DNA of 64,000 nucleotides from an uncultured Acidobacteriota bacterium. Lineage in GTDB: Bacteria > Acidobacteriota > Blastocatellia > RBC074. The notes under the pieces are model-generated. The model searched no databases. It had not been told where the DNA came from and was given only the letters and a program-made list of their open reading frames with translations. The stretch spans positions 7,730,689-7,794,688 of the forward strand of contig OY969418.1 in NCBI GenBank assembly GCA_963699175.1, in the 5' to 3' direction. A program made the position numbers and the translations under genes. Each line of letters begins with the position of its first letter. Within the stretch, counting starts at the first letter, position 1. Below are positions 10,077-35,977 of the stretch, one piece after another.

Positions 10077-10136
10077 GACTATTTCTTCAGCTATTTTCTG
10101 CGATTGTGTATGATGGCTCGGAGGTTGAGCCTGACT

Positions 10137-11956: not shown

Positions 11957-14275
11957 ATGGCGACGGAAAATCAGACCGTTAAGCAAGCCTCTGGCTTAAT
12001 CACTGCGCTTTGGGCCAAGCCGCGCGTGCGGACGCTGGCGCGATACGTTGCGGCGCTCGCGCTCTGTCTGCTCGTGCTCGGCGCGGTGCTCAACGTGCGG
12101 CGCGAGGCGCGCAAGTGGCCGTATCTCTATCAGGGCGACACGATGTTCTATCACCTGGTCGTCAAGAGCGTGATTGATCACGGCTGGTTTCTCAACGTGC
12201 CGTTGCTGGGCGCGCCGGGACAGTTGAATCTGCGCGACGTGCCGACTTCGGATAACAACCTGCACGCGCTGCTGCTGCGCTTGTTAGCGTTGAATACATC
12301 GCATTACCCGTCAGTGCTCAACAACTTTTTTCTGCTCACGTTTCCGCTGGTCTTTCTTTGCGCGCTCTGGGTGCTGCGGCATTTCGGCTTGGGTTGGTGG
12401 GCGAGCGTGTGGGCGAGTCTGCTCTACACCTTCACGCCATATCATCTGACGCGCAACGAACATCATCTCTTTCTAGCGGCCTATTGGACGGTTCCATTGG
12501 TTGCGTTAATGGCGTTGTGGGTGAGCCGCGGTGAATTGTGGCCGGGGCAGGCGGAGCGTTCGAGTTGGCGTCACTGGCGGCTGGGGTTGAGTGTATTGAT
12601 TTGTTTGGTGCTGGGCGCGACAGGGTTTTACTACGCCTTCTTTGCCTGCTTCTTTTTGTTGCTGGCGGGAGTGCTGGCCGTGATGCAGCGGCGCGATTGG
12701 CGTGGTTGCTGGCTCGCGCTTGGGTTGATCACCATCATCAGCGCAGGCGTAGTCGTAAACCTCCTGCCGAGCATTCTCTATTTCGCCGAGCACGGCAACG
12801 TGCAAATCGTGCGGCGTCAGGCGGGCGAGGCCGATTATTACGGCTTGCGGATTGCGCAGCTTTTGTTGCCGGTGCGCTGGCATCGCCTGCAAGCGTTGGA
12901 GGATTTGAAAACCGAGTACAACCAGCGCTTGTTTATTAACGAGAACGACGACGCCTCGTTGGGCTTCGTCGGTGTGTTGGGTTTTCTAGGTTTGCTCTGG
13001 TGGTTCTGTTTCCGTAAACCGGCGGCGGAGGGGATGAGCAAAGGCGGCGCGGAGGGCTTGCTGCATCACTTGAGCATCTTCAATCTGGCTGGCCTGTTAT
13101 TTGGCACGATGGGTGGCTTCGGCTCTTTAGTGGCCTTCTTCGGCCTATCACAAGTGCGCGCCTACAATCGCATCAGCATCTTCCTGGCTTTCTTCGTCGT
13201 CTTTGCATTGGCGTTGTGGGTGGAGAGTTGGGCGCAACGCTCTGCCGTCACGCGTGCGCGGCAGGTTGCGTTGGGCGTGGCGCTAGTCGTGTTGACCGTG
13301 TTGGCGCTCTTCGATCAAATCAGCCCGAAGACCTTGCCAGAATACGAGAAGGTCAAAGCCCAATTCGTCAACGACGGCACCTTTGTGCGCGAGATCGAAA
13401 AGAACGTGCCGCACGGCGCGATGATTTTTCAACTGCCCGTGATGTCGTTTCCAGAAAATCCGCCGGTGGCGCGGATGAAAGACTATGACCTGTTGCGTGG
13501 CTACCTACACAGCAATCATTTGCGCTGGAGTTACGGCACCATCAAAGGACGTGAAGGGGATATATGGCTGCGCCAGGTGGCCAGCCAACCGTTGGACGAG
13601 ATGGTCGAGACACTGGCCTGGGCCGGGTTCAGCGGCATTTACATTGATCGCAACGGCTATGCCGACAATGCGGTGAGAATCGAGAAGGAGCTTTATACGG
13701 CACTTTGCGATTATCAGTTCTTCAGCCCGGACGAGAAGCTGATCTTCTACAACCTGAAAAACTACCGCGAACGCTTGCTGCAACGCACGCCGCAGAGTGA
13801 GTGGCAAGCGAAGCGTGAGGCGGCGCTCCATCCAATGTTGGCCGTCTGGCAAAGCGGCTTCTCCGAGTTGGAAGGCCCGTCGAATGACAATTGGCGCTGG
13901 TGTGGCGCGAATGGGCGAATGGCGTTGGTCAATCGCACTGCGCGCCCGCAGCAGGTGCGGCTGGAAATGACTGTGGCGGCGGACTACGGCGGTAACGTGA
14001 CGATCCAAGCGCCATTTTTTACTGAGCAGTTGAAAGCGGATAAGAATGGACAGAAGGTGGGCAAGACTTTCGCATTGCCGCCCGGCGAACACGCGGTCTA
14101 TTTTGCTTCCGACGCGCGGCGCGTGTATCCGGCGAATGATTTTCGCGAGTTGGTCTTTCGAGTGCGGAACTTCAGGCTGACGCCTATGGCGAGCGCGATT
14201 GAAGAGAAGAAGCAGGAGCCAGTAACGCAACCGACGCCGATGCAGAAAGGGAAAGCGGCCGGGGCAGCCCGCTAG
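11957..14275 (+). CDS. Large polytopic membrane protein with a C-terminal soluble domain (function unknown, possibly GT-C-like)
   Basis: The ATG at 11957 follows GGAAGGAAG. There are about 12 hydrophobic segments, then a ~300-aa hydrophilic domain. The function guess is weak. Confidence 0.4.
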   Translation: MATENQTVKQASGLITALWAKPRVRTLARYVAALALCLLVLGAVLNVRREARKWPYLYQGDTMFYHLVVKSVIDHGWFLNVPLLGAPGQLNLRDVPTSDNNLHALLLRLLALNTSHYPSVLNNFFLLTFPLVFLCALWVLRHFGLGWWASVWASLLYTFTPYHLTRNEHHLFLAAYWTVPLVALMALWVSRGELWPGQAERSSWRHWRLGLSVLICLVLGATGFYYAFFACFFLLLAGVLAVMQRRDWRGCWLALGLITIISAGVVVNLLPSILYFAEHGNVQIVRRQAGEADYYGLRIAQLLLPVRWHRLQALEDLKTEYNQRLFINENDDASLGFVGVLGFLGLLWWFCFRKPAAEGMSKGGAEGLLHHLSIFNLAGLLFGTMGGFGSLVAFFGLSQVRAYNRISIFLAFFVVFALALWVESWAQRSAVTRARQVALGVALVVLTVLALFDQISPKTLPEYEKVKAQFVNDGTFVREIEKNVPHGAMIFQLPVMSFPENPPVARMKDYDLLRGYLHSNHLRWSYGTIKGREGDIWLRQVASQPLDEMVETLAWAGFSGIYIDRNGYADNAVRIEKELYTALCDYQFFSPDEKLIFYNLKNYRERLLQRTPQSEWQAKREAALHPMLAVWQSGFSELEGPSNDNWRWCGANGRMALVNRTARPQQVRLEMTVAADYGGNVTIQAPFFTEQLKADKNGQKVGKTFALPPGEHAVYFASDARRVYPANDFRELVFRVRNFRLTPMASAIEEKKQEPVTQPTPMQKGKAAGAAR

Positions 14276-16366: not shown

Positions 16367-17347
16367 TCAAGCGGCAACTGCATAATTTGGATCGTAGGCC
16401 CGCTGCTTCTTCAACACGCCATAAGCGAGTCGCACCAGTTTATGCATAGCCGCCACGATAATTTGCATCTTCTTCTTGCCGCGCGCTGTGAGGCGTGCCG
16501 CCAGCTCTTTGAACTCTTTGCTTGAACGTAAGGCCGCCAGCGCGGGCAGGTAGAGCGCGTAGCGCACGCGCGGGTTGCCAATCTTCGAGAGCCGTCCGGG
16601 CGCGTTGAGCGAAGTCCCGGATTGCTGCCGCTGCGGCGTCAACCCCGTGTAGGCCGCCGCCGCCCGCGCTGAGTCGAACTCAGCCAGTTGTGGCATCTCG
16701 GCCAGCAGGCGCGCCGCTGTCTCCGGCCCGATGCCAGGGATCGAATCCAGTAACGCGCGTTGCTGCTTGAGCGTGGGATGCTCGTCGAAGTGCTGATTGA
16801 GTTGCCGCTTGATCTCGGCGATTTGCGCCTCGAGCGTCTCAACTACTTTCTCCCAAGACGCGCGTACGGCCTGCGTCAGCCGCCCGTCGGTCAGCCGGTT
16901 GCTGACTTGCGTGCGCTGCTCGATCAGGTCATCGAGATGCCGCACGAGCGCTTGCAGTTCCTGCTGTGCCGGCGGCAAGGGCGTCCAGGCCGCCGGGTTG
17001 TAGCGCCAGCCGAAGCGCGCGATCAAGACAGCATCGGCCCGGTCGGTTTTGTTGCGTTGCAGTTCGCTTCGGCCAAAGGCTTTGATTTGCGCCGGATTGA
17101 TAATACTGACCGTGTGCCCGGCGGCGTGCAGGTAGGCGGCCAGCGCGTCGCCATAAGCGCCGGTTGCTTCCAGCACGGCGTGGACTTGCGGCACACCTTG
17201 TTGGGTGAGCCAGGCCTGCAAAGCTTGAAAGCCGGCGGGCGTGTTGGCGCACTGCCGTTGTTTCGGCTTGCCTGCTTCCGGGTCGCGCAGCAAAGCTACG
17301 TCAAAGGTCTTTTTGCTAATATCAATTCCGAGTTTGGGCAGTGTCAT
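16367..17347 (-). CDS. IS110-family (DEDD) transposase/recombinase
   Basis: MTLPKLGIDISKKTFDVAL, EATGAYG, and the C-terminal Transposase_20-like IPGIGPETAARLLAEM. The ATG at 17347 is preferred over the listed upstream start. Confidence 0.9.
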   Translation of the reverse strand: MTLPKLGIDISKKTFDVALLRDPEAGKPKQRQCANTPAGFQALQAWLTQQGVPQVHAVLEATGAYGDALAAYLHAAGHTVSIINPAQIKAFGRSELQRNKTDRADAVLIARFGWRYNPAAWTPLPPAQQELQALVRHLDDLIEQRTQVSNRLTDGRLTQAVRASWEKVVETLEAQIAEIKRQLNQHFDEHPTLKQQRALLDSIPGIGPETAARLLAEMPQLAEFDSARAAAAYTGLTPQRQQSGTSLNAPGRLSKIGNPRVRYALYLPALAALRSSKEFKELAARLTARGKKKMQIIVAAMHKLVRLAYGVLKKQRAYDPNYAVAA

Positions 17348-17604
17348 GGTTAAGCTCCGGTTGAAGTCCAGCAACGCCAGGCACAAACTTACTGAGCGCG
17401 GTCTTGCCAATGCAGGCTGCTGCGCGTAGGCAGCGCCTTGAGATACCGTTCGGGCTTGAGCAGTAAGTTAAACGGTGGCAGCCTGAATCTACCGCACAGG
17501 CTCTAGGGCGAAGCGACTTGTCAGGTTGCTGCCACCGCTGTCCCAGGCGTCCCTGGGTATGTGCGCGCTACTTTGAGGTGGCGCGTACATAAACTCAACA
17601 TACA
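17348..17604 (-). ncRNA. Candidate bridge (guide) RNA region in the 5' non-coding arm of the IS110 element
   Basis: Its position matches where IS110-group elements encode their bridge RNA. It contains AGATACCGT (17441-17449), identical to the junction at 16350-16358. It also contains ATCTACCGC (17487-17495), the reverse complement of the junction at 16345-16353. No structure was computed. Confidence 0.4.
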
Positions 17605-17687: not shown

Positions 17688-18851
17688 TTACACTTTCCTA
17701 AATAGCGCCCCCGCAATGGTCAAGCCCGGTCCAAACGCCAAACTGGCGACCAGCGTGCCAGCCTTGATCATATCTGTTTCCAAAACACGCGCCCAAACGT
17801 GCGGCAAGGTCGCCGACGACATATTGCCGCGTTCGTACAACAGCGCGCGACTCACCGCGGTCTGTTCCCCGTTCAGTTCCAGGAGCGCCTGTACCGCATC
17901 AATGATGCGCGGCCCGCCAGGATGCACGGCAAACAAAGTCTGGGCGCGCTCAGCTTCATAATTTTCGCCCGCCTGCGCAAATATCCGCGCGAGAAATCCG
18001 GGCAGTTCCGCCGCAATCTTCTCTGGCACTTCGCGCGCCAGCGTCATCCTGAAGCCCCACTCCGACAACTCCCAAGTCATGTCGGCCAACGAATCCGGCA
18101 CGATCTCTTCACGCACGGCCAGCACTTCAAACGCCGGTTGTGCAATTTCGGCTTCAACCTCACACAACGTCAACGCGTAACGGATGTGGCCATCGGCGAA
18201 GAGGCTCTGCACCACGAGTTGTTCAGGCCGGTGATCGCGCGGGTTGAAATGGAGCGTGCACAACTCGGTATGCACGATCTCGGCGCGTGGCGGCCCGCCG
18301 TTTTGCGGATTGAGCAGTAGCCCTTTGGCCACGCGCAGCGCCGGCACGGCGGCATAACAACCCATGTGATAAATCTGCGTCGCGCGCGTTTGCGTGTGCC
18401 AACCTTTGGCCGCCAGCAGCCGCTGAATCGCGCTGGGCGAAGCGTAGCCGGTGCAGGTGACGTGCAGCAGATCGCTGGGTGCGTCCGTTTCGCCGACAAA
18501 AAAATCCTGCAAGGCGCGGTGGGCTGTCTCGGCAAAGAATTGACTGCGTACTGCCAGGCTGTGTCCCTCCGGGTTTTCGTGCAGATTGAAAATCTGCATG
18601 CGCGACCAATCCTGATGCAGGAAGTCTTCCAGTTCGGAATATCGCCGCCCGATGCTCGATGGCGCGCAGCCATAACGCCGTACCAGTCTGGACATACGCG
18701 ACACGAACTCCGCCTGCGGTTCGGCTTGTCCATTGGCGGTCGCTTCGGCACGCGAGTGCGCGGCGGTCAACCAGTCAGAGACATACTCCTGTGCGCCGTG
18801 ATAACGCGGCAGGATGATATTGAAATTGCTTAGCACCGTTCGTTGTTTCAT
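17688..18851 (-). CDS. Type III polyketide synthase (chalcone/stilbene synthase superfamily)
   Basis: The catalytic triad contexts are HVTCTGYASPS (Cys), FAVHPGGPRII (His) and GNMSSATLPHV (Asn), plus the C-terminal FGPGLT. 387 aa. Confidence 0.85.
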   Translation of the reverse strand: MKQRTVLSNFNIILPRYHGAQEYVSDWLTAAHSRAEATANGQAEPQAEFVSRMSRLVRRYGCAPSSIGRRYSELEDFLHQDWSRMQIFNLHENPEGHSLAVRSQFFAETAHRALQDFFVGETDAPSDLLHVTCTGYASPSAIQRLLAAKGWHTQTRATQIYHMGCYAAVPALRVAKGLLLNPQNGGPPRAEIVHTELCTLHFNPRDHRPEQLVVQSLFADGHIRYALTLCEVEAEIAQPAFEVLAVREEIVPDSLADMTWELSEWGFRMTLAREVPEKIAAELPGFLARIFAQAGENYEAERAQTLFAVHPGGPRIIDAVQALLELNGEQTAVSRALLYERGNMSSATLPHVWARVLETDMIKAGTLVASLAFGPGLTIAGALFRKV

Positions 18852-18976: not shown

Positions 18977-20128
18977 TCAAGCGCGTTTGCGCAATTCGCT
19001 GCGCAAACTGCCGCGCGCCACGTCAATTACTACTTCAGCATTGAACACACGCTGGAAATTATCAAACGCGGCCTGCTCGACCGCCGCGACCAGATTCGCA
19101 TGCAAGCCACGCGCGCCTGTGCCACGTTTCAAGCTGCGTTCGATGATGTAATCGAGCGCAGCCTCGGTGATGGTCAGTTGCAAGCTTTCGAGTTGAAACT
19201 CGCGCACGAATTGCGGCAGAACATTTTCGCTCAGAATCTGTTTCAGCGTCGTAGGGGATAACGCTTGAAAACGCACGATGCGCGCGAATCGCCCCATCAA
19301 TTCGGGCAGAAAGCCGTAGCGTTGAAAGCCCTCGATTTCTTCCAACACAGGCGCGTCCTGGGCGTGAGCGCCGGACTTGCCGTGGAAGCCGATGGTTTTG
19401 CTGTGGGACTTCAAGACCTGCTCCATGCCAGAGAAGGTGCCACACGCGATGAACGGCAGGTCGCGCGTCGAAAGCGGCGCGCGTTGGCCGTAGGCCGAAT
19501 AGCCAAAATCCATCGGCACCATCACGTCCGTGCCTTCCAACAGCTTGAGCAATTCGCGCTGTACGCCGTAGCCCGACACATCTTTCGTCGTGCCTTCACC
19601 GGCAAAACGCGCATTGCTGGTGGACGAGGCCAGCTTGTCGAATTCGTCCAGACAGATCACTCCGCATTGCGCCAGCAATAGATCGCCTTCCGCCGCGTAG
19701 ACCAGGCGCGTCAGAATCGTGTGCACGTCATCGCCTACATAACCGCTCTCGGTAAAACTGGTCACGTCCACAATCAGCGTCGGCAGATGAAAGAGCTGTT
19801 GAAAGAGCGATTCGACCAAGAAGGTCTTGCCACTGCCGGTCGGGCCGACGAGCAAGGTGTTCTGTTTGGGCGGCACGTGACGGCGCGGCTCATCGTCTAC
19901 GTGCAGCCGTTTCAGGCGTCGCACGTGACGATAGGCCATCAGCGCGAGCGCGCGGCGCGGCTCCGGCTGCCCTTTATAGCCCAATTGTTCCAACCGCTCG
20001 TAAATTTCCGGCGGCGCAATCAACGGCAGCGCGCGAATGAACTCACGCAGATTTTCGCGTTCCTGCCGCGACGGTTCGCGCGCCGACTGCATAGGGTCAT
20101 CGTCATCAAAAGGGAAGTTCAAAAGCAC
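18977..20128 (-). CDS. ClpX-family AAA+ unfoldase paralogue lacking the N-terminal C4 zinc-binding domain
   Basis: It has Walker A GPTGSGKT, pore loop ESGYVGDDV, Walker B ICLDEFDKL, the IGF-type loop KTIGFHG and sensor-2 GARGL. The N-terminal 90 aa have no Cys and there is no RKH loop. The exact start is uncertain (GTG 20128 / TTG 20122 / ATG 20092). Confidence 0.75.
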   Translation of the reverse strand: MLLNFPFDDDDPMQSAREPSRQERENLREFIRALPLIAPPEIYERLEQLGYKGQPEPRRALALMAYRHVRRLKRLHVDDEPRRHVPPKQNTLLVGPTGSGKTFLVESLFQQLFHLPTLIVDVTSFTESGYVGDDVHTILTRLVYAAEGDLLLAQCGVICLDEFDKLASSTSNARFAGEGTTKDVSGYGVQRELLKLLEGTDVMVPMDFGYSAYGQRAPLSTRDLPFIACGTFSGMEQVLKSHSKTIGFHGKSGAHAQDAPVLEEIEGFQRYGFLPELMGRFARIVRFQALSPTTLKQILSENVLPQFVREFQLESLQLTITEAALDYIIERSLKRGTGARGLHANLVAAVEQAAFDNFQRVFNAEVVIDVARGSLRSELRKRA

Positions 20129-20246: not shown

Positions 20247-21530
20247 CTACTTTCGCGTGCTTGCGCGCAAATCTTTTTCCGCACCATGTTGCGTGTGGCA
20301 AGCGATACAACGCACATTACCTTGTTTAAGCGAGTTCGTGGCAGCCCACTGCGCCAGCTCAGCGGCCAGTTCCGGATGTAAACGATGACATTGCGCGCAC
20401 GATTCGCGTACATTGTGCCACAGCTCCTTGCCTTCCATACCACCCAGATGGCAATCGCTGCATTGGGTGCGGCCTTGCTGCCGGCCTTGCGTGTGCAGCA
20501 TGTGGAATTGCTCGCGCAGGTTGTAATCCGCCGTGTGCTTGGGCAAGGCGCGGCGTTGCCATTCGGCTTGCGCGAGACCGTCCCACGACCAGAGGCCGTT
20601 TTTGACCGGATAACGGACTGGCACCTGATGCGGCGAGCCAGCCGGCTTGTTTTCTGTTGTGCCGCTCTCTGCCAGATGGCAATTTGTGCAGACAGCATTG
20701 GCGACTAATCCAGGTTGAAAGGCGCTGCCGCGATGTTCAGCGTGACAAGTCAGACAAGTCAAGCCGAGCTTCGCATGCGTGTTGCCAATCTCAGATCGAA
20801 AAGCAGGTGTGGTGTGACAGCTTGCGCAATTTTTTTGCATTGAGCCAATCAAGACGTGACAGCTTACACACGAGCCGCCGCTGGCGCCCACCGCAACAGC
20901 GGTTGAGTTGGTGAGAGCGTTGCGAGTGTGCGCCGCAGAAAGTGCCGCCGGAGCAAACGCGCGCGGAAAGGCGAAGGCCGCAAAAATTGCAATCAGCGCA
21001 GTGGCCAGCAGGACGCCTACGACTAAACCCCACGTCCAGCGGCGGCGCAGGTCAGCAGTAGGTTGCCAGGCGAATTGTGCGTCGGCGGGCAGGGTTGTCT
21101 GTACCGCTTCAGCCGTTTGCAAGCGACGCGCCCAGTAATTGCTCAAGGCGTTTTCATCTGTGGGTGTGACTTCTTTCGGCGCTACGGTGGCCGCTGTGTC
21201 ACTGGCTGGCTCAAGCAGAAATTCAACGGTGATTTGCAACAGTTCTCCAATCACCGAGCAATGCAGCCGATATGCGCCGAGCAGCAACGCGTCGCCACTG
21301 GTGAGCGGCGCGTGGTTGACCGGTTCGCTGTTGAGCAAGAGACTCGATTCTGCGAGCGCGGAAATCCAATACGCACCATCCTGCAGTGTGATGCCCGCGT
21401 GAAAGGGCTGCACCGTAGGATGATTGAGCTGCAAATCGCACACTGCTGCGCGCCCGATCAGCAAACCTTCGCTATGGAGCGAACTGGGATCAGCCTGGTA
21501 ATCAGTGCGAAGAATGCGGAAAGTAGCCAT
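20247..21530 (-). CDS. FHA domain - single TM - periplasmic heptahaem c-type cytochrome
   Basis: The N-terminal FHA-like segment is LLIGRAAVCDLQLNHPTVQPFHAGITLQDGAYWI. The TM is WGLVVGVLLATALIAIFAAFAF. The seven CxxCH motifs are CVSCH, CASCH, CLTCH, CTNCH, CSDCH, CAQCH and CIACH. Confidence 0.8.
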   Translation of the reverse strand: MATFRILRTDYQADPSSLHSEGLLIGRAAVCDLQLNHPTVQPFHAGITLQDGAYWISALAESSLLLNSEPVNHAPLTSGDALLLGAYRLHCSVIGELLQITVEFLLEPASDTAATVAPKEVTPTDENALSNYWARRLQTAEAVQTTLPADAQFAWQPTADLRRRWTWGLVVGVLLATALIAIFAAFAFPRAFAPAALSAAHTRNALTNSTAVAVGASGGSCVSCHVLIGSMQKNCASCHTTPAFRSEIGNTHAKLGLTCLTCHAEHRGSAFQPGLVANAVCTNCHLAESGTTENKPAGSPHQVPVRYPVKNGLWSWDGLAQAEWQRRALPKHTADYNLREQFHMLHTQGRQQGRTQCSDCHLGGMEGKELWHNVRESCAQCHRLHPELAAELAQWAATNSLKQGNVRCIACHTQHGAEKDLRASTRK

Positions 21531-21533
21531 AGC

Positions 21534-23738
21534 TTAGCGCCAACTGAAATAGATCACCTGCCACAAGTGAATCACGAGCAAAGCAAGCATTGCGCTGGCG
21601 CAGACTATGTGCGGCCACAACCACCACCGCAACAGCCGCTGGCCCAAAATCAAGCGGTTCAAACGCGACAATGACGCGCGCTCTTCGTCCGTTGCCGCTT
21701 GCGCGGCCAACTGCTGGCGCAACGCCGCGCGGCGCTCAAGCAGGTCTTCCAGCAAGAGCGGCTGCTGTTCCCATTTCGTCAGCCAGCGCGGCACGAGCAG
21801 ATACAGCAACTGTCCCAGTCCACCCGTTAAAAACGCCAAGCCGGAAGTCAGCGCCAGCCATTTGGTCAGTGGACTGCTCAAACTTCTGCCGCAGTGCAGC
21901 GCAAAGAGCAACGCCGTCGCCAACCCCGCGTAGTTGTGCGCGAGCAGCCAATAGTGCAGCAAACCCGCGCGGCGCGTCTGGGTTCGTTTGCGCCAGACGT
22001 AGGTCAATACACCGGCTAAGCCTGCCATACCAACCAAACCCGTCAGCCAATGCCAGCCGCGCCCTGTGCTAAGTGGAGGCGCAGCCGCTTGCCGATTCCA
22101 CCAAACCAGCGCGGTCAGCAAGACCGTCACGGCTGCGCCCACTCCGTGCAACAAGGACAACAGCCGGCGATTGCGTCGCGTTTCAGGCAATGAATGCGGC
22201 GCGCCAAGCCGCTTTCGGCGCGCCTGTTGCAGCGTTGCGCCAGTGATCGTGCCGAGTTCGGCGAAGCTTTCGCCAGGCTTGACGCGCTGCAACGCACCTG
22301 TCGGACAATTCTCCACACAGCCATAAAGGTGTCGCTGGTGGCCATTGGCGTTTAACTCCGTGCCCACGCACAAATCGCACTTTACCGCCAACCGCTCTCC
22401 CGCTCTTTCAGCTTCACGCGGTATCAATGCAATTGCTCCATAAGGACAGCGCGCCGCGCAATCGCCGCAGCCGATGCAAGTTTGTGCGTTGATCTCGACG
22501 CGCCCATCGGGCAATTGTTTGATCGCGCTCGTCGGGCAGCCGTGCAAGCATTCCGGCTGCTGGCAATGATGGCAGGCGGCGGGCACGATCAATGTTTCCA
22601 ATGACGCGCGCTCATTCGCTTGAGGCAGTCTGGTAGGGCGGGTGAGTGTGAGGCCGCGCCGGACGAGGCGCGTTTGGCCGTGCAAGGTGTGACAGGCCAG
22701 CGAACAATTGCCGCAGCGGATGCAGGTCTCGGAGTCAATCGTCAGCAGATTGGCGGTGGCGGCCACGCCAGTGGTGATGAGACGGTCTTGTGCGGCGGCA
22801 ATCGGCAAGGGCTGGCGCTGATGAGCGAGTGTGGCAGGCGGCGCGATTTTTTTGAGCGCAGTAGTGATGTCTTCGATCAATTCGGACTCTTCGCGCAAGA
22901 GCGCCAGGGAAATTTCCAGCACTTCGACTCGGCTTATGGCTGTCGCAGTTTGCGGCCAATTTACTTCACCCGTCGCACCTTCCAGCCCGAAACAATAACC
23001 TGCGCCAAGGTATTCTGCCTGCGCTACCGCAGCCCAGTCGGTCGCGTTCATCGCGGCGTCTTCGGCCGTAGCCCCTTCATTGATTTTGCTCAGCTTCACC
23101 CAGCCGGACTTGATGATATAGAGCCGCCGGATCGGCTCGCCCTCACGAAAGAGCGTGTGCTGTTTTTCGTAGGCGTGGAATTGCGACATGGTCGCCAGTT
23201 TGTTGAGCGATTCTGTGTCGAGACGCGTGGCAGAGGCCAAGTCCTGCAGGGTCAGCGCGCGGTTGTTGCGGCGGTAAGCTTTGTCGAGCGCCACTGCAAA
23301 CAGTGGCACTTTGCGCAGTAAGCGCAAGGCCGGGCGTTGCACTTCGAGCACTGTCACGGAGCTGTCTTTGGGTGCGCAGACCGTCGCCGTGCGCGGCAGA
23401 TTGGCCAGTACGGTCATTTCGCCGAAGAGCGCGCCCGCCTGCAACTCGCCCACCTTCGCCCAGCCGCGCCGCACGTAGACTTCCGCCGGGCCGTCCACCA
23501 CGAAGTAGAAACGGTCGCCCAATTCGCCTTCGCGCACGATCTCTTCCGTCGGCTCGTAGATGAGCAGGCGCAGATAGGGCGCGACCGGTTGTCCGGCGTA
23601 GACGTGCCCGCGCGTAAGTGCATCCAGCTCGGCTTCGGCCAGGCCGCTTACCGTTGCCGGTTGCAACATCCCTGCTAATGCGGCAGTCTTCGCTATAGCA
23701 GCAAGCACATCATTGTGATCGGTGTTCTCCTGCGGCAT
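21534..23738 (-). CDS. Two cyclic-nucleotide-binding domains + NrfC/DmsB-like four-cluster [4Fe-4S] ferredoxin module + C-terminal 5-TM His-rich membrane domain
   Basis: The cNMP-like motifs are FGEMTVL...RTATV and YCFGLEG. The cluster motifs are CIRCGNCSLAC, CHHCQQPECLHGCP, CIGCGDCAARCP and CDLC...CVENCP. Five hydrophobic helices carry His residues (LAHNYAG, ALHCG, WPHIV, VIHLW). The stop is 3 nt from the next gene's start. Confidence 0.75.
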   Translation of the reverse strand: MPQENTDHNDVLAAIAKTAALAGMLQPATVSGLAEAELDALTRGHVYAGQPVAPYLRLLIYEPTEEIVREGELGDRFYFVVDGPAEVYVRRGWAKVGELQAGALFGEMTVLANLPRTATVCAPKDSSVTVLEVQRPALRLLRKVPLFAVALDKAYRRNNRALTLQDLASATRLDTESLNKLATMSQFHAYEKQHTLFREGEPIRRLYIIKSGWVKLSKINEGATAEDAAMNATDWAAVAQAEYLGAGYCFGLEGATGEVNWPQTATAISRVEVLEISLALLREESELIEDITTALKKIAPPATLAHQRQPLPIAAAQDRLITTGVAATANLLTIDSETCIRCGNCSLACHTLHGQTRLVRRGLTLTRPTRLPQANERASLETLIVPAACHHCQQPECLHGCPTSAIKQLPDGRVEINAQTCIGCGDCAARCPYGAIALIPREAERAGERLAVKCDLCVGTELNANGHQRHLYGCVENCPTGALQRVKPGESFAELGTITGATLQQARRKRLGAPHSLPETRRNRRLLSLLHGVGAAVTVLLTALVWWNRQAAAPPLSTGRGWHWLTGLVGMAGLAGVLTYVWRKRTQTRRAGLLHYWLLAHNYAGLATALLFALHCGRSLSSPLTKWLALTSGLAFLTGGLGQLLYLLVPRWLTKWEQQPLLLEDLLERRAALRQQLAAQAATDEERASLSRLNRLILGQRLLRWWLWPHIVCASAMLALLVIHLWQVIYFSWR

Positions 23739-23885: not shown

Positions 23886-24407
23886 ATGCAGATTAGCACC
23901 CGCTATTTACTCGTCCCGGTCGCCCTGCAGATGTTGTGTATGGCGTTGGATGAGTTCTATTTTCACTGGCAACGCGAACTGCCGCGCTGGGAGCGCCTGG
24001 GGCATCCGCTCGATACCTTGACGGTGTTGGTGTGTTACGCTTGGCTGTTGATGGTGCCACCAGGCGCGCTGGCGCTCGGCGTCTATGCAGGTCTGTGCGT
24101 CTTTTCGTGTTTGTTTGTGACGAAAGATGAATTAGTGCATCGGCAGCATTGCCAAGCGGGCGAGCACTGGTTGCATGCGATGCTCTTCATTTTGCATCCA
24201 CTGAGTCTGCTCAGTGCCGGGTTGCTGTGGCCAGCTTGGCACGAAAGCACACTCTCTTTTATCCGCTACGAAGGATTTGAGCGCGCCTTCTTATTGATCA
24301 ACGCGCTGCTGACCTTCGGCTTCGGACTCTATCAACTGATCTACTGGAACTTCGTATGGCCATTGTCAAATCCGGTCAAGTCAACAACGAGATCTACCAC
24401 CAGCTAG
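23886..24407 (+). CDS. Small His-rich integral membrane protein (possible membrane di-iron hydroxylase-like)
   Basis: 173 aa with about 4 TM segments. The His clusters are DEFYFH, GHPLD, DELVHRQH and EHWLHAMLFILH. The function is an inference only. Confidence 0.4.
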   Translation: MQISTRYLLVPVALQMLCMALDEFYFHWQRELPRWERLGHPLDTLTVLVCYAWLLMVPPGALALGVYAGLCVFSCLFVTKDELVHRQHCQAGEHWLHAMLFILHPLSLLSAGLLWPAWHESTLSFIRYEGFERAFLLINALLTFGFGLYQLIYWNFVWPLSNPVKSTTRSTTS

Positions 24408-25114
24408 GCGAGCAGTGGTATACGGCACGGGACAATCCGGTAGCCTTGCTACGCGCCGAAGCGCGTGCGCGCAATCCGTGGATCACCGGAATGATTCACC
24501 GCGCCTTTCCGGCTGGTGAGGTCAAGGTATTGGACATCGGCTGTGGCGGCGGCTTTCTGTCGAATTATTTGGCGCGCGAAGGTCTGATTGTGACGGGACT
24601 GGATGCGGCGGCTGAGAGTTTGGCCGTCGCGCGGCGCTATGATGTGACAGGCAGTGTGAACTACGAATTGGGCGACGCCTACCGCCTACCTTATCAAGCG
24701 GGCACATTTCAAACGGCCTGCGCGTTGGATTTTCTCGAACACGTGGATGAGCCGAGGCGCGTGATTGATGAGGCGGCGCGTGTGTTGCAACCCGGCGGTC
24801 TATTCTTCTTCTCGACCTTCAACCGCAATCTCATCTCCTGGCTCTTCGGGATCAAGGGCGTGGAGTGGTTTGTCAAAAATACGCCGCCGCGTATGCACCA
24901 GTTGAGCTACTTCATCAAACCAGCGGAATTGCGCGCGATGTGCCAGCGGAGCGGTTTGCACGTTTCCGAACTACATGGCCTTGTGCCGCGCTTGAATCGC
25001 GCGTTTTGGCGCATGCTGGTGCGGGGCGAGGTGGGCGATGACTTTGCTTTTCGTTTCTCGCGCAACACGCTGACCGATTATATCGGGCTGGCAGTGAAGC
25101 GCGAGCTCAAGTAA
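24356..25114 (+). CDS. UbiG-like class I SAM-dependent O-methyltransferase
   Basis: VLDIGCGGGFLSNYLAREGLIVTGLDAAAESLAVAR, ALDFLEHV and LQPGGLFFFSTFNR resemble UbiG. It overlaps the upstream ORF by 52 nt. Confidence 0.7.
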   Translation: MAIVKSGQVNNEIYHQLGEQWYTARDNPVALLRAEARARNPWITGMIHRAFPAGEVKVLDIGCGGGFLSNYLAREGLIVTGLDAAAESLAVARRYDVTGSVNYELGDAYRLPYQAGTFQTACALDFLEHVDEPRRVIDEAARVLQPGGLFFFSTFNRNLISWLFGIKGVEWFVKNTPPRMHQLSYFIKPAELRAMCQRSGLHVSELHGLVPRLNRAFWRMLVRGEVGDDFAFRFSRNTLTDYIGLAVKRELK

Positions 25115-26672: not shown

Positions 26673-27089
26673 TTACGGCTGTTTCTTGTAATCAATTTGC
26701 CAGACGCGCAACAGTTGCGCGAAGCCGTCATCGTGCGAGGTGGTGAAATCAACAATCTGAAGTTGTGGCAACACCCAGGAGAGATCCCTTTCCCGGCAGT
26801 GTGCGTATCGCAGCGGGACAATCTTGCCGTCAAACCGATCTTGCAATATGGCGTCGTTGAGTTCGTACTTGACCCACCTCGATTTGACTGAATTGGGGGA
26901 GAGAATGACGATAAACCAATCACAACGTTCAAGCGCTGCGCCGATTTCACCCAGCCATTGTTGGGCGGCAGTGATATTGGTTGGACTGTACCAAACAACC
27001 AACCCGTGTTGTCGGAGTGTGTCAGCCACATGCATCGCAAAGGCTTGGTCATCGCTGGAATGGGAGAGGAAAATTTCTTTCGGCAACAT
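26673..27089 (-). CDS. Stand-alone TIR-domain protein
   Basis: 138 aa. The TIR opening is EIFLSHSSDDQAFAMHVADTLRQHGLVVWYS. SPNSVKSRWVKYELNDA contains the SxW..E context of the catalytic Glu of TIR NADases. Confidence 0.8.
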   Translation of the reverse strand: MLPKEIFLSHSSDDQAFAMHVADTLRQHGLVVWYSPTNITAAQQWLGEIGAALERCDWFIVILSPNSVKSRWVKYELNDAILQDRFDGKIVPLRYAHCRERDLSWVLPQLQIVDFTTSHDDGFAQLLRVWQIDYKKQP

Positions 27090-27134
27090 AAGGGTAGCTA
27101 ACCGGCTGGTGTTGACGGCCAGACAAGCGCCTGC

Positions 27135-27938
27135 TTAGGCTGCGGCTTTTAGCGCCGCGACAATTTGATTGAGGTCTTCGCCCTGGCCGTTATTGGGCAG
27201 GGTGATCATGTTTAAGCGCCGCAAAATCCAGGGAATCTTGTTTTGGGGAATTTGTTTAGGATCGCCTACCAGCACTGGAATCAAGCGGTGTTCATAGGCG
27301 CGGTTGCCCAGCGCATACTCGATGTCCTTCTTGACGTCGTCCAGCGAGTCGGGCGAGAGCAGGACGACCATCGCATTGGATTCTTCGAGCGCCTTGCCTC
27401 TGATTTTGGCCCAATTGTCGCCGGGGAAAATTTCGCGGTCGGCATACCACACGTCTAAGTCGGAGTCTTTCAGCCTTGCCTGAATTTTGAGCGCGAGCGT
27501 TTTATCGCTCGGCGAGTAACTGAGGAAAACTTTTAGCTCATCACGTGCGGGCGGGCCAATAACAGCCTCAACTGCTCTCAACAAACTCTCTAGTCCCTCG
27601 CGCTTACTGCATAGAGAAACATTACTTCCATTTGCTGGTGAAAGGAGTTCACGCACTAAATCTACAGTCACCTCCAGATACGCCGTCAAGATGATCTTAG
27701 GCAAAGTGTCATCAAGTTGTTTGGCGAATACCAAACCGGAGAGATCCTTTTCGTCTGCATCATCTTGGAGACGGACATCAAAGATCGCCAAGTCTAGATA
27801 CTTTTGTCCTGCTGTAGTTATTGCTTCTTCAAGGCTTGAAGCTACTAGGACTTGATAACCCTTACGTTCAAGAAATTCTTGAACAGTTTCACGATAATCA
27901 GGATCATTGTCCACCAACAGGATTTTTTTTGTTTCCAT
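27135..27938 (-). CDS. Response-regulator receiver (REC) domain fused to a C-terminal TIR domain
   Basis: The REC domain has KILLVDNDPD (acidic pocket), LAIFDVRL (Asp54 acceptor), IILTAY (Thr85) and Lys112. The TIR domain has KVFLSYSPSDKTLALKIQARLKDSDLDVWYADREI...VVLLSPDSLDDVKKDIEYAL. An AGGAG SD lies upstream of the ATG. Confidence 0.8.
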   Translation of the reverse strand: METKKILLVDNDPDYRETVQEFLERKGYQVLVASSLEEAITTAGQKYLDLAIFDVRLQDDADEKDLSGLVFAKQLDDTLPKIILTAYLEVTVDLVRELLSPANGSNVSLCSKREGLESLLRAVEAVIGPPARDELKVFLSYSPSDKTLALKIQARLKDSDLDVWYADREIFPGDNWAKIRGKALEESNAMVVLLSPDSLDDVKKDIEYALGNRAYEHRLIPVLVGDPKQIPQNKIPWILRRLNMITLPNNGQGEDLNQIVAALKAAA

Positions 27939-29985: not shown

Positions 29986-31224
29986 TCAGGCGAAACTTTC
30001 CTCCGCCCTACCACGTTGCGAACGATAAATGAAATTAGCCCGGCCAAAGCGCACTTCACAGCCGTCATCCAAGCGCACTTCCTTGATGCGTTTGCCGTTG
30101 ACGAAAGTGCCATTGCTGCTGTCTAGATCGAAGAGCAAGTATTGATCCTCTTCGACGATCAAGCGGGCGTGGCGTTTGGAGACCGAAGGGTGTTCGATCA
30201 CGAAAGAGTTGTTGAGTGTACGCCCGACGAAGATTTCATCGCGGTTGAGGATGAAGGCGATGCGCTCGTCGCCATCCGGCGTGAACGAAACGAAGTGCGG
30301 GCGGTTGTCCAGATTTTCGCGCGCCGGAAGGCGGATGTTTGCGCCGCAGCGCATGCAGAACTTCGCGCCAGGGCGTTGTGGTTCGCTACAGACAGGACAT
30401 AGCTCCAGTTCTTCGGGATCAGGAATAATGACCCCACAACGCGGGCAAGGCATGCCGGCTTTGCCCTTCGCGCCGCATTGCTGGCAGTAACGGCGCGTCG
30501 GCATCAGCATCGTACCTTCGCGGTGTGGCGAAGTCTCGGCGTGATACTTAGTGCGTGAGCGTACCCACAGGAAGAGCGCAACCATCGCAATGACCAGCAG
30601 CACGAAAAAGCCATTGTGCCACTTGGTCGCGCCTTCCAGCATCGTGTTGAAGAGTGCATGCAACATTGCCGCAATCAGCCAGCCTTTGACGACAATGGGC
30701 GCGCGTTCACTGGTCAGGTTGGGTTTGGTCTTGGCTTCGCAGAGCGCCAGACCCCAGACAGCGGAGAAAAGCGCATGGCCAGGGTTCGAGAGTGGCCCGC
30801 GCAGCAATACAAACAGCGGATTGTTTTGCGAGATGTAGAAGATATTTTCGACGGCGGCAAAGCCTAGCGCGGCAGCGGCGCTGTAGATGACACCATCGAG
30901 CGGCTCGTCGAATTCCGGCTGGCGGTAAGCGTAAATCCAGACCATCAGCATCTTGATGCCCTCTTCGACCGGCCCGACGACGCAAAAGAAAAAGAGAATG
31001 TCCGAGATTTGCGTCTTGCCCGCAAACGCATAGAAGAGATTGCGCCCAATGACATTGAGGAAGAGCGCCGGAATCGTCGAGAACGCGCCCAGCGCAAAGG
31101 TGATGGCGATCAGCCGTAACGGCGGGCGTTTGTAACGGCTATGCGTGTAGAAGTAGACCAGCCAGACTACGCAAGGCAGCAGCGAGATGAAGGGGATGAA
31201 GATGAGTTTTTGCAGGTCAGTCAT
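29986..31224 (-). CDS. PrsW-family intramembrane protease + double zinc ribbon + C-terminal FHA domain
   Basis: PrsW motifs are VEEGIKML, GFAAVENIFY, HALFSAVWG and HALFNTMLEG. There are four CxxC pairs (CQQCG, CPRCG, CPVCS, CMRCG). The FHA segment is IFVGRTLNNSFVIEHPSVSKRHARL...LDSSNGTFVNG. Confidence 0.8.
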   Translation of the reverse strand: MTDLQKLIFIPFISLLPCVVWLVYFYTHSRYKRPPLRLIAITFALGAFSTIPALFLNVIGRNLFYAFAGKTQISDILFFFCVVGPVEEGIKMLMVWIYAYRQPEFDEPLDGVIYSAAAALGFAAVENIFYISQNNPLFVLLRGPLSNPGHALFSAVWGLALCEAKTKPNLTSERAPIVVKGWLIAAMLHALFNTMLEGATKWHNGFFVLLVIAMVALFLWVRSRTKYHAETSPHREGTMLMPTRRYCQQCGAKGKAGMPCPRCGVIIPDPEELELCPVCSEPQRPGAKFCMRCGANIRLPARENLDNRPHFVSFTPDGDERIAFILNRDEIFVGRTLNNSFVIEHPSVSKRHARLIVEEDQYLLFDLDSSNGTFVNGKRIKEVRLDDGCEVRFGRANFIYRSQRGRAEESFA

Positions 31225-31226
31225 TC

Positions 31227-33124: not shown

Positions 33125-33137
33125 AGGGGATTCCTAT

Positions 33138-35949: not shown

Positions 35950-35977
35950 CGCAGTGAATTCCAGAGAGTGTGTGTAG

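Follow-up and report, generated by a model that had tools for sequence, protein, structure and literature searches.

The NOX/FRD family, to which MsrQ (YedZ) and STEAP belong, uses two His pairs, spaced about 13 residues, on TM3 and TM5 to hold two stacked b-haems, and passes electrons from a cytoplasmic donor through these haems to the outside. The CbcL/FdnI-HydC-type systems, inner-membrane modules of extracellular electron transfer in Geobacter, and FdnGHI exchange electrons with quinones; FdnH is periplasmic, and in FdnHI the path from FeS clusters through one b-haem to the next is established. In the Hmc, Tmc, DsrMKJOP and Qrc complexes of sulfate reducers, DsrO and HmcB are Tat-exported and the cytoplasmic partner is HdrD-like; to our knowledge, none of these complexes carries regulatory cNMP or FHA domains.

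A putative ptdABCDEFG operon has been described bioinformatically (bioRxiv 10.1101/2023.11.21.568154), in which PtdE, PtdF and PtdG are a cNMP-binding 4Fe-4S protein, a ferric-reductase-like transmembrane protein and a periplasmic deca-haem cytochrome, and PtdC is an FAD/NAD(P) oxidoreductase. We analysed a 64,000-nucleotide stretch of DNA from an uncultured soil bacterium of the Acidobacteriota (the window), in which two adjacent genes have the three parts of PtdE/F/G in common, a likeness that concerns the architecture as described and not the Ptd sequences. They differ from Ptd in that the cNMP-FeS and transmembrane parts are fused and that the cytochrome bears an N-terminal FHA domain and 7 haems where PtdG has 10. 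With moderate confidence, we propose that the two products would form a complex that moves electrons across the cytoplasmic membrane, outward and under regulation, without need of a catalytic molybdo- or nickel-enzyme partner.

A linked gene pair and its domains

Both genes lie on the minus strand. Gene 1 (21534-23738; 734 aa) encodes two cNMP-binding domains, a module for four [4Fe-4S] clusters and a 5-TM four-His domain in a single polypeptide, and gene 2 (20247-21530; 427 aa) encodes a heptahaem c-type cytochrome with an FHA domain and a single TM anchor. The two are in the same reading frame, with a 3-nt gap between stop and start (TAA-GCT-ATG), and the ORF calls bear out the coordinates, strand and spacing given in the first-pass annotation. 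With scoring limited to 8,000 candidates, gene 1 has more than 2,700 homologues, and nearly all of the 120 matches listed are full-length with the same architecture. The pair occurs in more than 409 species genomes. Among 80 homologous loci in species genomes, 77 had room for a downstream gene (almost all of them in genomes labelled Acidobacteriota, many in Blastocatellia), and gene 2 stands directly 3' of gene 1 in every one of these 77, which confirms that the pair is conserved together; the flanking genes of three listed homologous loci were unlike each other and unlike those of the window. In the homologues compared, 61 of gene 1 and 87 of gene 2 (30-84% identity), the 16 FeS Cys, the 4 TM His, the 7 CxxCH motifs and 7 further His are all invariant, a conservation of the predicted cofactor ligands far beyond chance. 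The first-pass annotation had named loss of linkage, FeS clusters and haems on one side of the membrane, and failure of the domain assignments as findings that would tell against it; all three were checked, and none was seen.

Pfam recognises two cNMP_binding domains (E 3.5e-28) and Fer4_11/Fer4_7 (E ~1e-11) in gene 1. Domain 1 (23304-23573, minus strand; residues ~56-145, with the best PF00027 stretch at 61-133) has a canonical phosphate-binding cassette, F105-G-E...P-R116-T-A-T119, whose columns are conserved among the homologues (F 61/61, G 61/61, E 60/61, R 54/61, T 61/61). Domain 2 (22869-23216, minus strand; residues ~175-290), the second PF00027 stretch, is degenerate, its cassette Arg being replaced (Q263 in the window), and H194, C249 and W261 are invariant or almost so in the 61 homologues. 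The four-cluster ferredoxin module that follows (22278-22745, minus strand; residues 332-487), predicted to be cytoplasmic, shows the DmsB/NrfC/AegA-N pattern with its 16 invariant Cys in the groups C339/342/345/349, C389/392/397/401, C421/424/427/431 and C454/457...474/478. Pfam matches and Cys positions agree with the two cNMP domains and four DmsB/NrfC-type clusters first read from the sequence. The best partial NCBIfam matches of the module are the AegA N-terminus, DmsB, NrfC and DsrO, all far under their cut-offs, and it was modelled with pLDDT below 50. A four-cluster ferredoxin fold is also found in the complexes of sulfate reducers, which connect periplasm and cytoplasm by multihaem c cytochromes, a membrane b-cytochrome and FeS proteins, a plan that the window pair would share; the partial matches of gene 1 to DsrO, HmcB and QrcC are far under the cut-offs (DsrO 62 vs 200 bits).

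Gene 2 matches FHA and Cytochrom_c3_2/C7 in Pfam, and these profiles, hydropathy and motif positions reproduce the previously noted FHA domain, single TM helix and seven CxxCH motifs. The FHA domain (21264-21494, minus strand; residues 13-89; PF00498 37.1 bits vs a cut-off of 20.7) retains G26-R27 and N67. At the phosphate-contacting position, occupied by Ser in canonical FHA domains and in the consensus of this family, the window has Q41 (S 61, A 20, Q 6 in this column among the 87 homologues). The FHA and cNMP assignments are upheld by profile searches, but as signalling domains they call for two reservations, the replaced cassette Arg in the second cNMP domain and the Ser-to-Gln exchange in the window's FHA domain. 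The TM signal-anchor (20970-21026, minus strand; residues 169-187; hydropathy score 2.74) leads to a periplasmic heptahaem domain (20250-20951, minus strand; residues 194-427), in which the CxxCH motifs lie at residues 221, 235, 259, 281, 357, 378 and 408; all 86 full-length homologues have exactly seven. Together with the seven invariant distal His (H201, 252, 266, 301, 343, 346 and 415), these motifs lead us to predict bis-His coordination for all haems of gene 2.

The four-His membrane domain and its separately encoded relatives

Hydropathy gives the 5-TM domain of gene 1 (21537-22160, minus strand; residues 527-734) segments at 527-545, 564-582, 598-616, 627-645 and 711-729. The first-pass annotation had called these five His-bearing helices; the five helices stand, but TM4 contains no His. 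The four invariant His form two i,i+14 pairs, H601/H615 in TM3 and H710/H724 in TM5, on helices that run parallel, and are putative ligands of two b-haems, while H531 in TM1 is ~90% conserved and H563 and H595 are unconserved. The cytoplasmic insert between TM4 and TM5 is conserved as PRxLTxxExxPLLxEDLxxRR. An AF2 model of the domain alone is all-helical and confident (pLDDT 85.6, pTM 0.75), and a Foldseek search with it returned no match (best E 0.3, STEAP1 at E 2.9); comparison with Pfam haem-b families gave nothing significant (E 0.63 and 1.0), and PDB sequences gave no match. The domain aligned with a stand-alone four-His family (hhalign E 1.5e-48) with the four His in register. Of 80 such stand-alone relatives, 28 weakly match DUF4405, 21 Ni_hydr_CYTB and 13 Ferric_reduct, with the best E near 1e-5. 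The invariant His pairs and these transitive matches to di-haem cytochrome b families support the putative haem-b domain proposed earlier, although a direct profile or structure match is absent.

The window domain resembles NOX/FRD proteins in its His pairs on TM3 and TM5, their spacing, the N-in orientation and the weak Ferric_reduct matches of its relatives, and it would work on the same principle. It differs in its donor module, an N-terminal polyferredoxin in place of a C-terminal FAD/NADPH domain, in having 5 TM helices and the long conserved TM4-TM5 insert where NOX/FRD has 6 helices, in a dedicated multihaem cytochrome as acceptor, and in the lack of a significant direct Pfam or Foldseek match. 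With the CbcL/FdnI-HydC type it would share a di-haem b membrane domain beside a periplasmic multihaem c cytochrome, and its relatives weakly match Ni_hydr_CYTB and DUF4405; here, however, the TM domain has its FeS module on the same polypeptide, on the cytoplasmic side, and a role for quinones is not evident.

The stand-alone homologues are unannotated proteins of ~300 aa from Terriglobia, Methylomirabilota and Planctomycetota, and the split clusters of these groups resemble PtdE/F/G in architecture. In 49/65 loci the ORF directly 3' of the stand-alone TM gene has 6 or more CxxCH (mostly 10), and an FeS protein lies directly 5' in 31 of the 61 loci having an upstream ORF. The annotated split clusters, two in all (L113 and L153), encode a NuoE/NuoF-like module as a NuoE-NuoF fusion, recalling NuoEFG/HoxFU, together with a HoxU/NuoG-N plus cNMP protein, a decahaem cytochrome and, set between these, the four-His TM protein. 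In L113, the HoxU/NuoG-N-like FeS domain (HoxU 174 bits) precedes the cNMP domains, and the same protein includes the four-cluster FeS part. This N-terminal module is missing from gene 1, and of the window ORFs of at least 200 aa that were annotated, none was NuoEF-like. Residues 61-514 of gene 1 are colinear with the split-cluster cNMP-FeS protein (E 4e-41), and the decahaem partner in the split systems shares homology with the membrane-proximal four-haem part of gene 2 (hhalign probability 97.2, E 3.6e-11).

Gene 2 is followed in 43/60 Acidobacteriota fused-form loci by a third gene, for a membrane-anchored 2x[4Fe-4S] plus FAD/NAD(P)H oxidoreductase, a flavoprotein that PtdC matches in domain type. 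Using tblastn we found no member of this PtdC-like, NAD(P)H-oxidising gene 3 family in the window, and it is also absent in the closest relatives; the annotated window ORFs of at least 200 aa include no porin or pentahaem (PtdA/B) gene. Judged by sequence, separate genes for a multihaem cytochrome, a haem-b-like membrane protein and a cNMP plus FeS protein occur together widely, and the window pair appears to be a condensed, FHA-bearing variant of such a cytoplasm-to-periplasm electron-export module. Its novelty, suggested by the earlier reading, is therefore partial, given the split genes and the like architecture of the preprint's putative PtdE/F/G. A natural fusion of the heptahaem and TM domains, P0230, is a singleton on one contig, directly 3' of TIR-iSTAND and AAA+ genes.

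Membrane sidedness and the probable direction of electron flow

Neither product has a signal or twin-arginine motif at its N-terminus, as had been noted for gene 1. Predicted cytoplasmic loops are rich in K+R and predicted periplasmic ones poor, in the window and in the whole family, and the helix of gene 2 (3 K+R in the 15 residues before it, 1 in the 15 after) is predicted N-in/C-out. In L113 and L153, the gene for the related FeS protein neighbours a NuoEF-type NADH/FMN module, which is necessarily cytoplasmic. These three lines of evidence corroborate the proposed sidedness, FeS inside and haems outside.

Electrons would enter the chain of four [4Fe-4S] clusters of gene 1, pass to two b-type haems in TM3/TM5, bound by H601/H710 on the cytoplasmic side and H615/H724 on the periplasmic side, and leave by way of the membrane-anchored product of gene 2, through its seven periplasmic bis-His c-type haems. 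Flow most likely runs outward, with NAD(P)H or ferredoxin as the donor and periplasmic or extracellular acceptors, or periplasmic reductases, at the far end, since flavoproteins that oxidise NADH or NAD(P)H are partners in homologous systems and the inside-negative membrane potential favours outward electron movement. Such flow would spend both reducing power and membrane potential, so regulation is to be expected. The most probable allosteric switch would be the canonical cNMP domain 1, N-terminal to the FeS module, and the FHA domain of the cytochrome subunit may offer a second cytoplasmic docking or regulatory handle in the Acidobacteriota form, so that gating by cNMP or pThr is conceivable.

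An unlikely alternative is that the four-His domain is a quinol (or polyketide-quinol) oxidase/reductase of the CbcL/ImcH/FdnI type, passing quinone-pool electrons to the heptahaem, with the cytoplasmic FeS/cNMP part as a second input or regulator and not the main donor. It draws on the Ni_hydr_CYTB matches of distant relatives, an FdnI/HydC quinone-reactive family, and on the neighbours of the window's clade, which resemble polyketide-quinone clusters (PMC9927152): a type III polyketide synthase (PKS; 17688-18851, minus strand; Pfam Chal_sti_synt_N and Chal_sti_synt_C), and a 173-aa His-rich membrane protein with a UbiG-like O-methyltransferase (23886-25114, plus strand, divergent from gene 1). 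The methyltransferase reaches 139 bits against the NCBIfam UbiG cut-off of 103, and the membrane protein had no match in Pfam or NCBIfam. The PKS is, however, confined to a few closely related loci of the window's clade (2/80 species genomes, two metagenome contigs and the window); in L004, L005, L008 and L009, which have this neighbour, the membrane protein and methyltransferase lie 3' of it on the same strand as the pair. Moreover, no quinone-site motif was identified, both annotated split forms have complete NADH-to-FeS input modules, and the simplest reading of a polyferredoxin with 16 invariant Cys fused to the TM domain is an electron entry chain.

Slightly less probable still is a transmembrane redox sensor, in which the external redox state, read by the periplasmic haems, would be relayed via the b-haems and FeS clusters to the cNMP-like and FHA domains, these being partner-recruiting outputs instead of inputs. 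Two signalling-type domains on the cytoplasmic side, a window without a donor enzyme gene, the abundance of FHA, STK, PP2C, TIR and caspase-WD40 genes around the pair and the position of P0230 would suit such a role. Thirteen redox centres in a wire arrangement nevertheless far exceed what a sensor needs, the intact cassette of domain 1 is typical of an input domain, and the presence of split homologues on NuoEF-type NADH dehydrogenase modules or FAD/NAD(P)H oxidoreductases implies bulk electron flow. Cultured members of the class Blastocatellia are mainly aerobic heterotrophs. This, a doubly uphill path (toward the negative membrane side and onto low-potential FeS or NAD(P)+) and a cluster without a coupling ion-translocating subunit make it very improbable that periplasmic or extracellular donors reduce the heptahaem and send electrons inward to cytoplasmic ferredoxin or NAD(P)+, even if the cofactor chain is reversible in principle and the ptd genes, related by architecture, have been reported from nitrite oxidisers and Planctomycetes, organisms that depend on reverse electron flow (10.1101/2023.11.21.568154).

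Other genes near the pair

A Ser/Thr kinase/FHA island, suggested earlier as the source of pThr, does exist at ~29.9-38.4 kb of the window, but nothing ties it to the pair; the region as a whole is rich in FHA, STK, PP2C, TIR and caspase-WD40 genes. Directly 3' of gene 2 lies a ClpX paralogue without the Zn-finger N-domain (18977-20128, minus strand; NCBIfam ClpX 233 bits vs a cut-off of 359, the alignment covering ClpX residues 57-395), which also follows gene 2 in 12/80 homologous loci at 61-85% identity.

Domain architecture and topology of the gene pair

Gene 1 (21534-23738, minus strand, 734 aa) and gene 2 (20247-21530, minus strand, 427 aa) were recovered by ORF calling with the coordinates and strand of the first-pass annotation, and its observation of the pair is confirmed: Pfam profiles matched the two cNMP-binding stretches, the four-cluster ferredoxin, the FHA domain and the multihaem region, and neither N-terminus displayed a signal or twin-arginine motif. 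Direct inspection showed five hydrophobic helices in the C-terminal part of gene 1 and a single TM helix in gene 2. Residue conservation was evaluated in 61 homologues of gene 1 (37-84% identity) and 87 of gene 2 (30-79%).

At the junction (...TGG CGC TAA GCT ATG GCT...), gene 2 starts 3 nt past the gene 1 stop and no Shine-Dalgarno sequence is evident. The TAA, the single codon GCT and the gene 2 ATG (21528-21536, minus strand) belong to one reading frame. Since the two genes share this frame, we considered a stop-codon readthrough giving one protein and rejected it, as no fused homologue of ~1,160 aa appeared among the 120 gene 1 homologues listed. A promoter and terminator scan returned nothing above shuffled controls. 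A gene 2 homologue was found immediately downstream and on the same strand in all 77 loci with enough sequence, so the two genes are conserved together, and the adjacency recurs in three metagenomic loci with gaps of 8, 62 or 197 nt. This variation indicates that, of the translational coupling initially proposed, the adjacency is conserved across loci and the tight coupling is not.

The cNMP assignment in gene 1 is well supported (PF00027, 97.8 bits versus a cut-off of 27.5, two stretches, E 3.5e-28), and the 2 domains differ in their binding residues. Domain 1 has an intact phosphate-binding cassette (F105-G-E107...R116-T-A-T119, with the pattern FGE...PRTAT), whose Arg is kept in 54 of the 61 homologues. 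In domain 2 the corresponding position is occupied by Q263 (Gln in 36/61 and Tyr in 15/61 homologues), and the loss of this phosphate-contacting Arg predicts only one functional nucleotide site. Domain 2 is degenerate, yet H194, C249 and W261 are invariant among gene 1 homologues, which suggests that this Arg-less domain could hold a non-nucleotide ligand or cofactor such as haem or a metal, for which CooA-type sensors offer a comparison. These three residues are encoded within 22992-23159 (minus strand), where the phosphate-binding Arg has been lost. At the N-terminus of gene 1, Pro2 is conserved in at least 90% of sequences.

The FeS module that follows was matched by Fer4_11 (45.1 bits versus a cut-off of 26.2) and by Fer4_7, and its 16 Cys are all present and invariant in the 61 homologues, arranged in four groups (CxxCxxCxxxC, CxxCxxxxCxxxC, CxxCxxCxxxC and CxxC...CxxxC) that reproduce the DmsB/NrfC pattern. 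Its best NCBIfam matches were the AegA N-terminus, DmsB, NrfC and DsrO, with 75, 69.7, 64.3 and 62.1 bits versus cut-offs of 1003, 214, 378 and 200, respectively. As these scores fall far under the cut-offs, gene 1 would share the fold of these families and not their membership; equivalog membership was also rejected because there is no Tat motif and no catalytic subunit adjoins, genes for a molybdo-enzyme or periplasmic complex catalytic subunit being absent among the neighbours.

In gene 2, the FHA domain (PF00498, 37.1 bits versus a cut-off of 20.7) covers residues 24-85, so profile searches uphold both the FHA and the cNMP assignments. Canonical residues make up the family consensus (GR...SRxH...NG). 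Of them, the window copy keeps R27 and N67, carries Q41 at the Ser position and has G68 changed to S; position 41 is Ser in 61, Ala in 20 and Gln in 6 of the 87 homologues. Judged by these residues, the window copy is degenerate at one of the three phosphothreonine (pThr) contact residues, and Q41 together with S68 makes its binding of pThr uncertain.

C-terminal to an N-in signal anchor, gene 2 continues with a haem domain recognised by c3/c7-type models (Cytochrom_c3_2, 49.2 bits versus a cut-off of 25). Its seven CxxCH motifs are all invariant, every full-length homologue has exactly seven, and seven further His (201, 252, 266, 301, 343, 346 and 415) are invariant as well. Seven distal His for seven haems predict bis-His coordination throughout, which, from established haem chemistry, would make the domain a wire for electron transfer and not a haem enzyme. 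A NapC/NirT/CymA-type quinol dehydrogenase was rejected, with PF03264 reaching only 15.2 bits (E 0.019) versus a cut-off of 24.1.

The first-pass annotation had placed the FeS module in the cytoplasm and the c-haems in the periplasm, and this structural inference is supported by the distribution of positively charged residues. The predicted cytoplasmic segments of gene 1 contain 4 K+R in the 15 residues before TM1 (family median 2), 5 in the 15 residues of the TM2-TM3 loop (median 6) and 10 in the 65 residues of the TM4-TM5 insert (median 18), and few K+R are found in the predicted periplasmic loops, with 2 in the 10 residues of the TM3-TM4 loop (median 0). The gene 2 anchor is flanked by 3 K+R in the 15 residues N-terminal to it and 1 in the 15 C-terminal. 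This distribution predicts a cytoplasmic location for the FeS module, both cNMP domains and the FHA domain, and a periplasmic one for the c-haems, on the side where c-type haem attachment has to take place; FeS clusters and c-haems would thus lie on opposite sides of the membrane.

A divergent four-histidine membrane domain

Within the TM domain of gene 1, H601, H615, H710 and H724 are invariant or 97% conserved and H531 is conserved in about 90% of the 61 homologues. The four His form two pairs with i,i+14 spacing, H601/H615 in TM3 and H710/H724 in TM5, and both helices have the same orientation. Such pairs are the classical layout by which cytochrome b and the NOX/ferric-reductase domain hold two b-haems in a stack, and the superfamily hallmark of four conserved His on two TM helices at a spacing of about 13-14 residues is found here.

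Direct comparison of this domain with known families was negative. Pfam returned only Ni_hydr_CYTB (E 0.63) and DUF4405 (E 1.0) for the window TM domain, and the family profile found nothing relevant among PDB sequences. An AF2 model of the TM domain was obtained with pLDDT 85.6 and pTM 0.75; when the FeS part was modelled with it, pLDDT fell below 50 over that part. Two Foldseek runs against the PDB yielded chance-level helical-bundle matches, with a best E of 0.3 and STEAP1 only at E 2.9; the sensitivity of Foldseek is limited for all-helical membrane bundles. As both the structural and the PDB profile searches stayed at chance level, the fold of the TM domain is not equated here with that of a solved cytochrome b.

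Relatives provided the connection. An exhaustive HMMER search of 1.8 billion cluster representatives gave 222 TM-domain relatives, many of which are stand-alone proteins of about 280-300 aa that keep the same four His, and the gene 1 TM-domain profile aligned to this stand-alone family with a probability of 100% (E 1.5e-48) and the His in register. Among 80 stand-alone relatives, Pfam detected DUF4405 in 28, Ni_hydr_CYTB in 21 and Ferric_reduct in 13, with best E values of 7e-6, 9e-6 and 1e-4, respectively, and these three are di-haem transmembrane cytochrome b families. From this transitive support we conclude that the TM domain would belong to the di-haem cytochrome b superfamily as a branch that has diverged and lacks annotation, with two putative b-haems. 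Database records name the membrane subunit 'hypothetical protein' throughout. A search with the Planctomycetota four-His protein recovered close Planctomycetota relatives only, and its top 120 database relatives all bear that name and have no Pfam domain.

Fused and split forms of the module

The distribution of the fused form rests on an alignment-based scan of one genome per species, guided by a profile of the FeS and TM region of gene 1, a genome scan with the gene 1 sequence alone having hit nothing but an unrelated ferredoxin. Relatives were present in at least 409 species genomes, the best 80 of which are nearly all labelled Acidobacteriota, many of them Blastocatellia, Pyrinomonadaceae or Chloracidobacterium, together with a few MAGs labelled Heliomicrobium or Clostridia. 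Eight loci with an Acidobacteriota-type pair (L014, L017, L022, L032, L037, L044, L047 and L066) have Heliomicrobium, Heliobacteriaceae or Clostridia in their titles, and two others (L153 and L158) are labelled 'Kuenenia' though their ORF layout is closely like that of Planctomycetaceae/Gemmataceae loci; all these labels are probably taxonomic mislabels in public records. Two paralogous pairs (L032 and L047) lie roughly 13 kb apart in one genome, on CAZJQQ010000008.1, as estimated from where each locus is placed on that contig.

Two additional redox genes accompany the fused form. The gene 3 family, located 3' of the pair in 43 of 60 fused-form loci (8468-10168 in locus L011, for example) and absent from the window, combines N-terminal TM helices, 2x[4Fe-4S] and an FAD/NAD(P)H oxidoreductase with a Zn-ribbon insert, and is a candidate for the electron-input subunit. 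An extra multihaem cytochrome of ~326 aa with c7/c3/MtrC-like domains was noticed at 13280-14236 (minus strand) of locus L025; 20 of 60 homologous loci have a member of this family at a distance of up to 3-5 ORFs from the pair, and it is a possible periplasmic acceptor.

The stand-alone four-His protein, scanned for with a sub-alignment (a single-sequence scan with P0276 gave nothing), was present in at least 394 species genomes, with hosts that include Terriglobia, Bryobacterales, Methylomirabilota/Rokubacteria, Planctomycetota and Wallbacteria, among others. In 49 of 65 four-His loci the gene directly 3', on the same strand, encodes a cytochrome of 6 or more haems (10 in most), and in 31 of the 61 that have an upstream ORF an FeS-motif protein is encoded directly 5'. 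In one of the two annotated split clusters, L113, four consecutive parts can be read: a NuoE-NuoF fusion (2Fe-2S_thioredx, FMN-binding 51K and NADH_4Fe-4S), a 742-aa protein in which a HoxU/NuoG-N-like FeS region is combined with cNMP_binding stretches and a four-cluster ferredoxin, the four-His protein and a decahaem cytochrome. The other, L153 from Planctomycetota, arranges these parts differently and adds a divergent c554-like tetrahaem.

Alignments tie these parts to the window pair. The L113 cNMP-FeS protein is colinear with residues 61-514 of gene 1 (E 4e-41), which suggests that gene 1 is its equivalent, lacking the HoxU-like head and joined to the membrane subunit in one chain. The L113 decahaem matches the membrane-proximal four-haem region of gene 2 (probability 97.2, E 3.6e-11) in an alignment that spans the GP[LV]SxxHA motif past the anchor, and the partner cytochromes of L113 and L153 contain no FHA domain. 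By this comparison gene 2 reads as a partner cytochrome that was shortened and acquired an FHA domain.

A further arrangement was seen in P0230, a 1277-aa protein (6001-9834 of locus L168, within 1-10442) that joins a large N-terminal region to a gene 2-type heptahaem and a gene 1-type four-His TM domain, and its gene comes right behind those of a TIR-iSTAND and an AAA+ protein. STAND-type signalling or conflict systems may on occasion take up the haem/TM module, which the literature we found on iSTAND conflict systems does not mention; as P0230 is a singleton from one contig, we give it little weight.

Full-text literature searches retrieved no characterised system of this architecture. They did show that this kind of module has already been noticed, bioinformatically only, as the putative ptdABCDEFG operon of marine Alpha- and Gammaproteobacteria, Nitrospirales and Planctomycetes, in which PtdC is an FAD/NAD(P) oxidoreductase, PtdE a cNMP-binding protein with 4Fe-4S clusters, PtdF a ferric-reductase-like TM protein and PtdG a decahaem, and whose function 'remains completely unknown' according to its authors (10.1101/2023.11.21.568154). 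Compared by described architecture only, PtdE/F/G follow the same tripartite logic as our split clusters, which match them fully, whereas the window pair is alike in architecture but fused and with 7 haems; PtdC and gene 3 are of the same domain type. Neither PtdA (pentahaem) nor PtdB (porin) has a counterpart beside the pair or among the annotated window ORFs of at least 200 aa. The fused gene 1 and the FHA-bearing heptahaem are variants not described in the literature we found.

Proposed electron export, its possible control and the gene neighbourhood

Taken together, the pair is likely a transmembrane FeS/haem electron-transfer complex, and we consider it reasonably probable that this complex exports electrons. 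Electrons would pass from the four [4Fe-4S] clusters to the N-side haem b (H601/H710), from there to the P-side haem b (H615/H724) and on to the seven bis-His c-haems, forming a conduit from cytoplasm to periplasm. An outward direction is favoured because relatives carry NADH- or NAD(P)H-oxidising partners and because the membrane potential assists electrons moving to the positive side, as established in bioenergetics. Inward electron uptake, the reverse reading, would be energetically uphill unless a coupling subunit took part. Compared with electron export, a pure redox-sensor role is less probable for a protein pair that would bear 13 redox centres and whose relatives are associated with NADH modules.

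A quinone-linked, CbcL/FdnI-like role survives best among the alternatives and draws some support from the gene neighbourhood of the window clade (L004, L005, L008 and L009), where the pair is followed by a ClpX paralogue and by genes for a type III PKS, a small membrane protein and a methyltransferase, the latter three on a single strand. In the window, the PKS lies at 17688-18851 (minus strand), abutted by an ORF (16367-17410, minus strand) that we take to be an IS110-family transposase, and the membrane protein and methyltransferase genes are inverted on the other side of gene 1. The former (23886-24407, plus strand, 173 aa) is His-rich and has no family match, and its motifs EFYFH, DELVHRQH and EHWLH are reminiscent of the His boxes of membrane di-iron hydroxylases; the latter (24356-25114, plus strand) is UbiG-like (NCBIfam UbiG, 139 versus a cut-off of 103 bits). 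This set resembles the polyketide-quinone (PkQ) clusters, which consist of a PKS, a methyltransferase and an oxidoreductase. That these genes accompany the pair would fit a quinone-linked role, which we nevertheless regard as unlikely.

The ClpX paralogue (18977-20128, minus strand, 383 aa) lacks the N-terminal Zn-finger domain and retains the Walker A (GPTGSGKT), the GYVG pore loop and an IGF-type loop (TIGFHG). It is found 3' of gene 2 in 12 of 80 homologous loci, with 61-85% identity versus 27-54% for the pair, and may have a dedicated unfoldase or protease-adaptor role.

Returning to electron export, the flow would dissipate both reductant and membrane potential, so regulation is expected. 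In L113 the cNMP domains are placed between the HoxU-like head and the polyferredoxin, where they would be well placed to gate the hand-over of electrons by conformational change. The regulatory inference made initially for the pair is plausible, and partly weakened for the window copy. In its most specific form, which we put forward tentatively, the complex would be a cAMP/cGMP-gated 'electron valve': nucleotide binding at the polyferredoxin-fused domain would switch a wire that runs from FeS through haem b to haem c, works independently of quinones and is built on an unrecognised cytochrome b family, and in the fused form of Acidobacteriota the FHA domain would place this wire under Ser/Thr-kinase (pThr) control. 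In the window clade the valve might be coupled to the polyketide-quinone pathway.

Most known transmembrane electron conduits come from metal reducers and sulfate reducers, and to our knowledge none has second-messenger or phospho-threonine reader domains. The window pair is one form of a large uncharacterised family extending over Acidobacteriota, Methylomirabilota, Planctomycetota and other phyla. If the proposal holds, it would provide a route by which NAD(P)H or ferredoxin pass electrons to periplasmic multihaem cytochromes independently of quinones, define a new branch of the di-haem cytochrome b superfamily, offer a concrete case of cNMP-regulated electron transport and allow a function to be assigned to the PtdE/F/G genes, which are transcribed in marine oxygen-deficient zones. 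A true valve would mean that transmembrane electron export is controlled directly, both allosterically and post-translationally, in carriers that are among the most abundant soil bacteria.

The first-pass annotation had also pointed to a nearby kinase island as a possible supplier of the pThr signal. The island exists, with kinase, FHA and PP2C genes at 29986-38412, and its tie to the pair is not supported: the flanks of the loci with listed genes give no support to the island as a conserved partner, and we found no conserved link between signalling genes and the pair. More broadly, the window is dense in signalling or 'multicellularity-type' genes (26673-27938 and 29986-38412, minus strand; 43900-46719, plus strand), which encode REC-TIR, PrsW-Zn-ribbon-FHA, FHA-GAF-SpoIIE phosphatase, TPR, Ser/Thr kinase-Zn-ribbon-FHA, Zn-ribbon-FHA and WD40-caspase proteins. 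A rhomboid gene is located at 39962-41371 (plus strand), and the short ORF at 26673-27089 appears TIR-like by eye.
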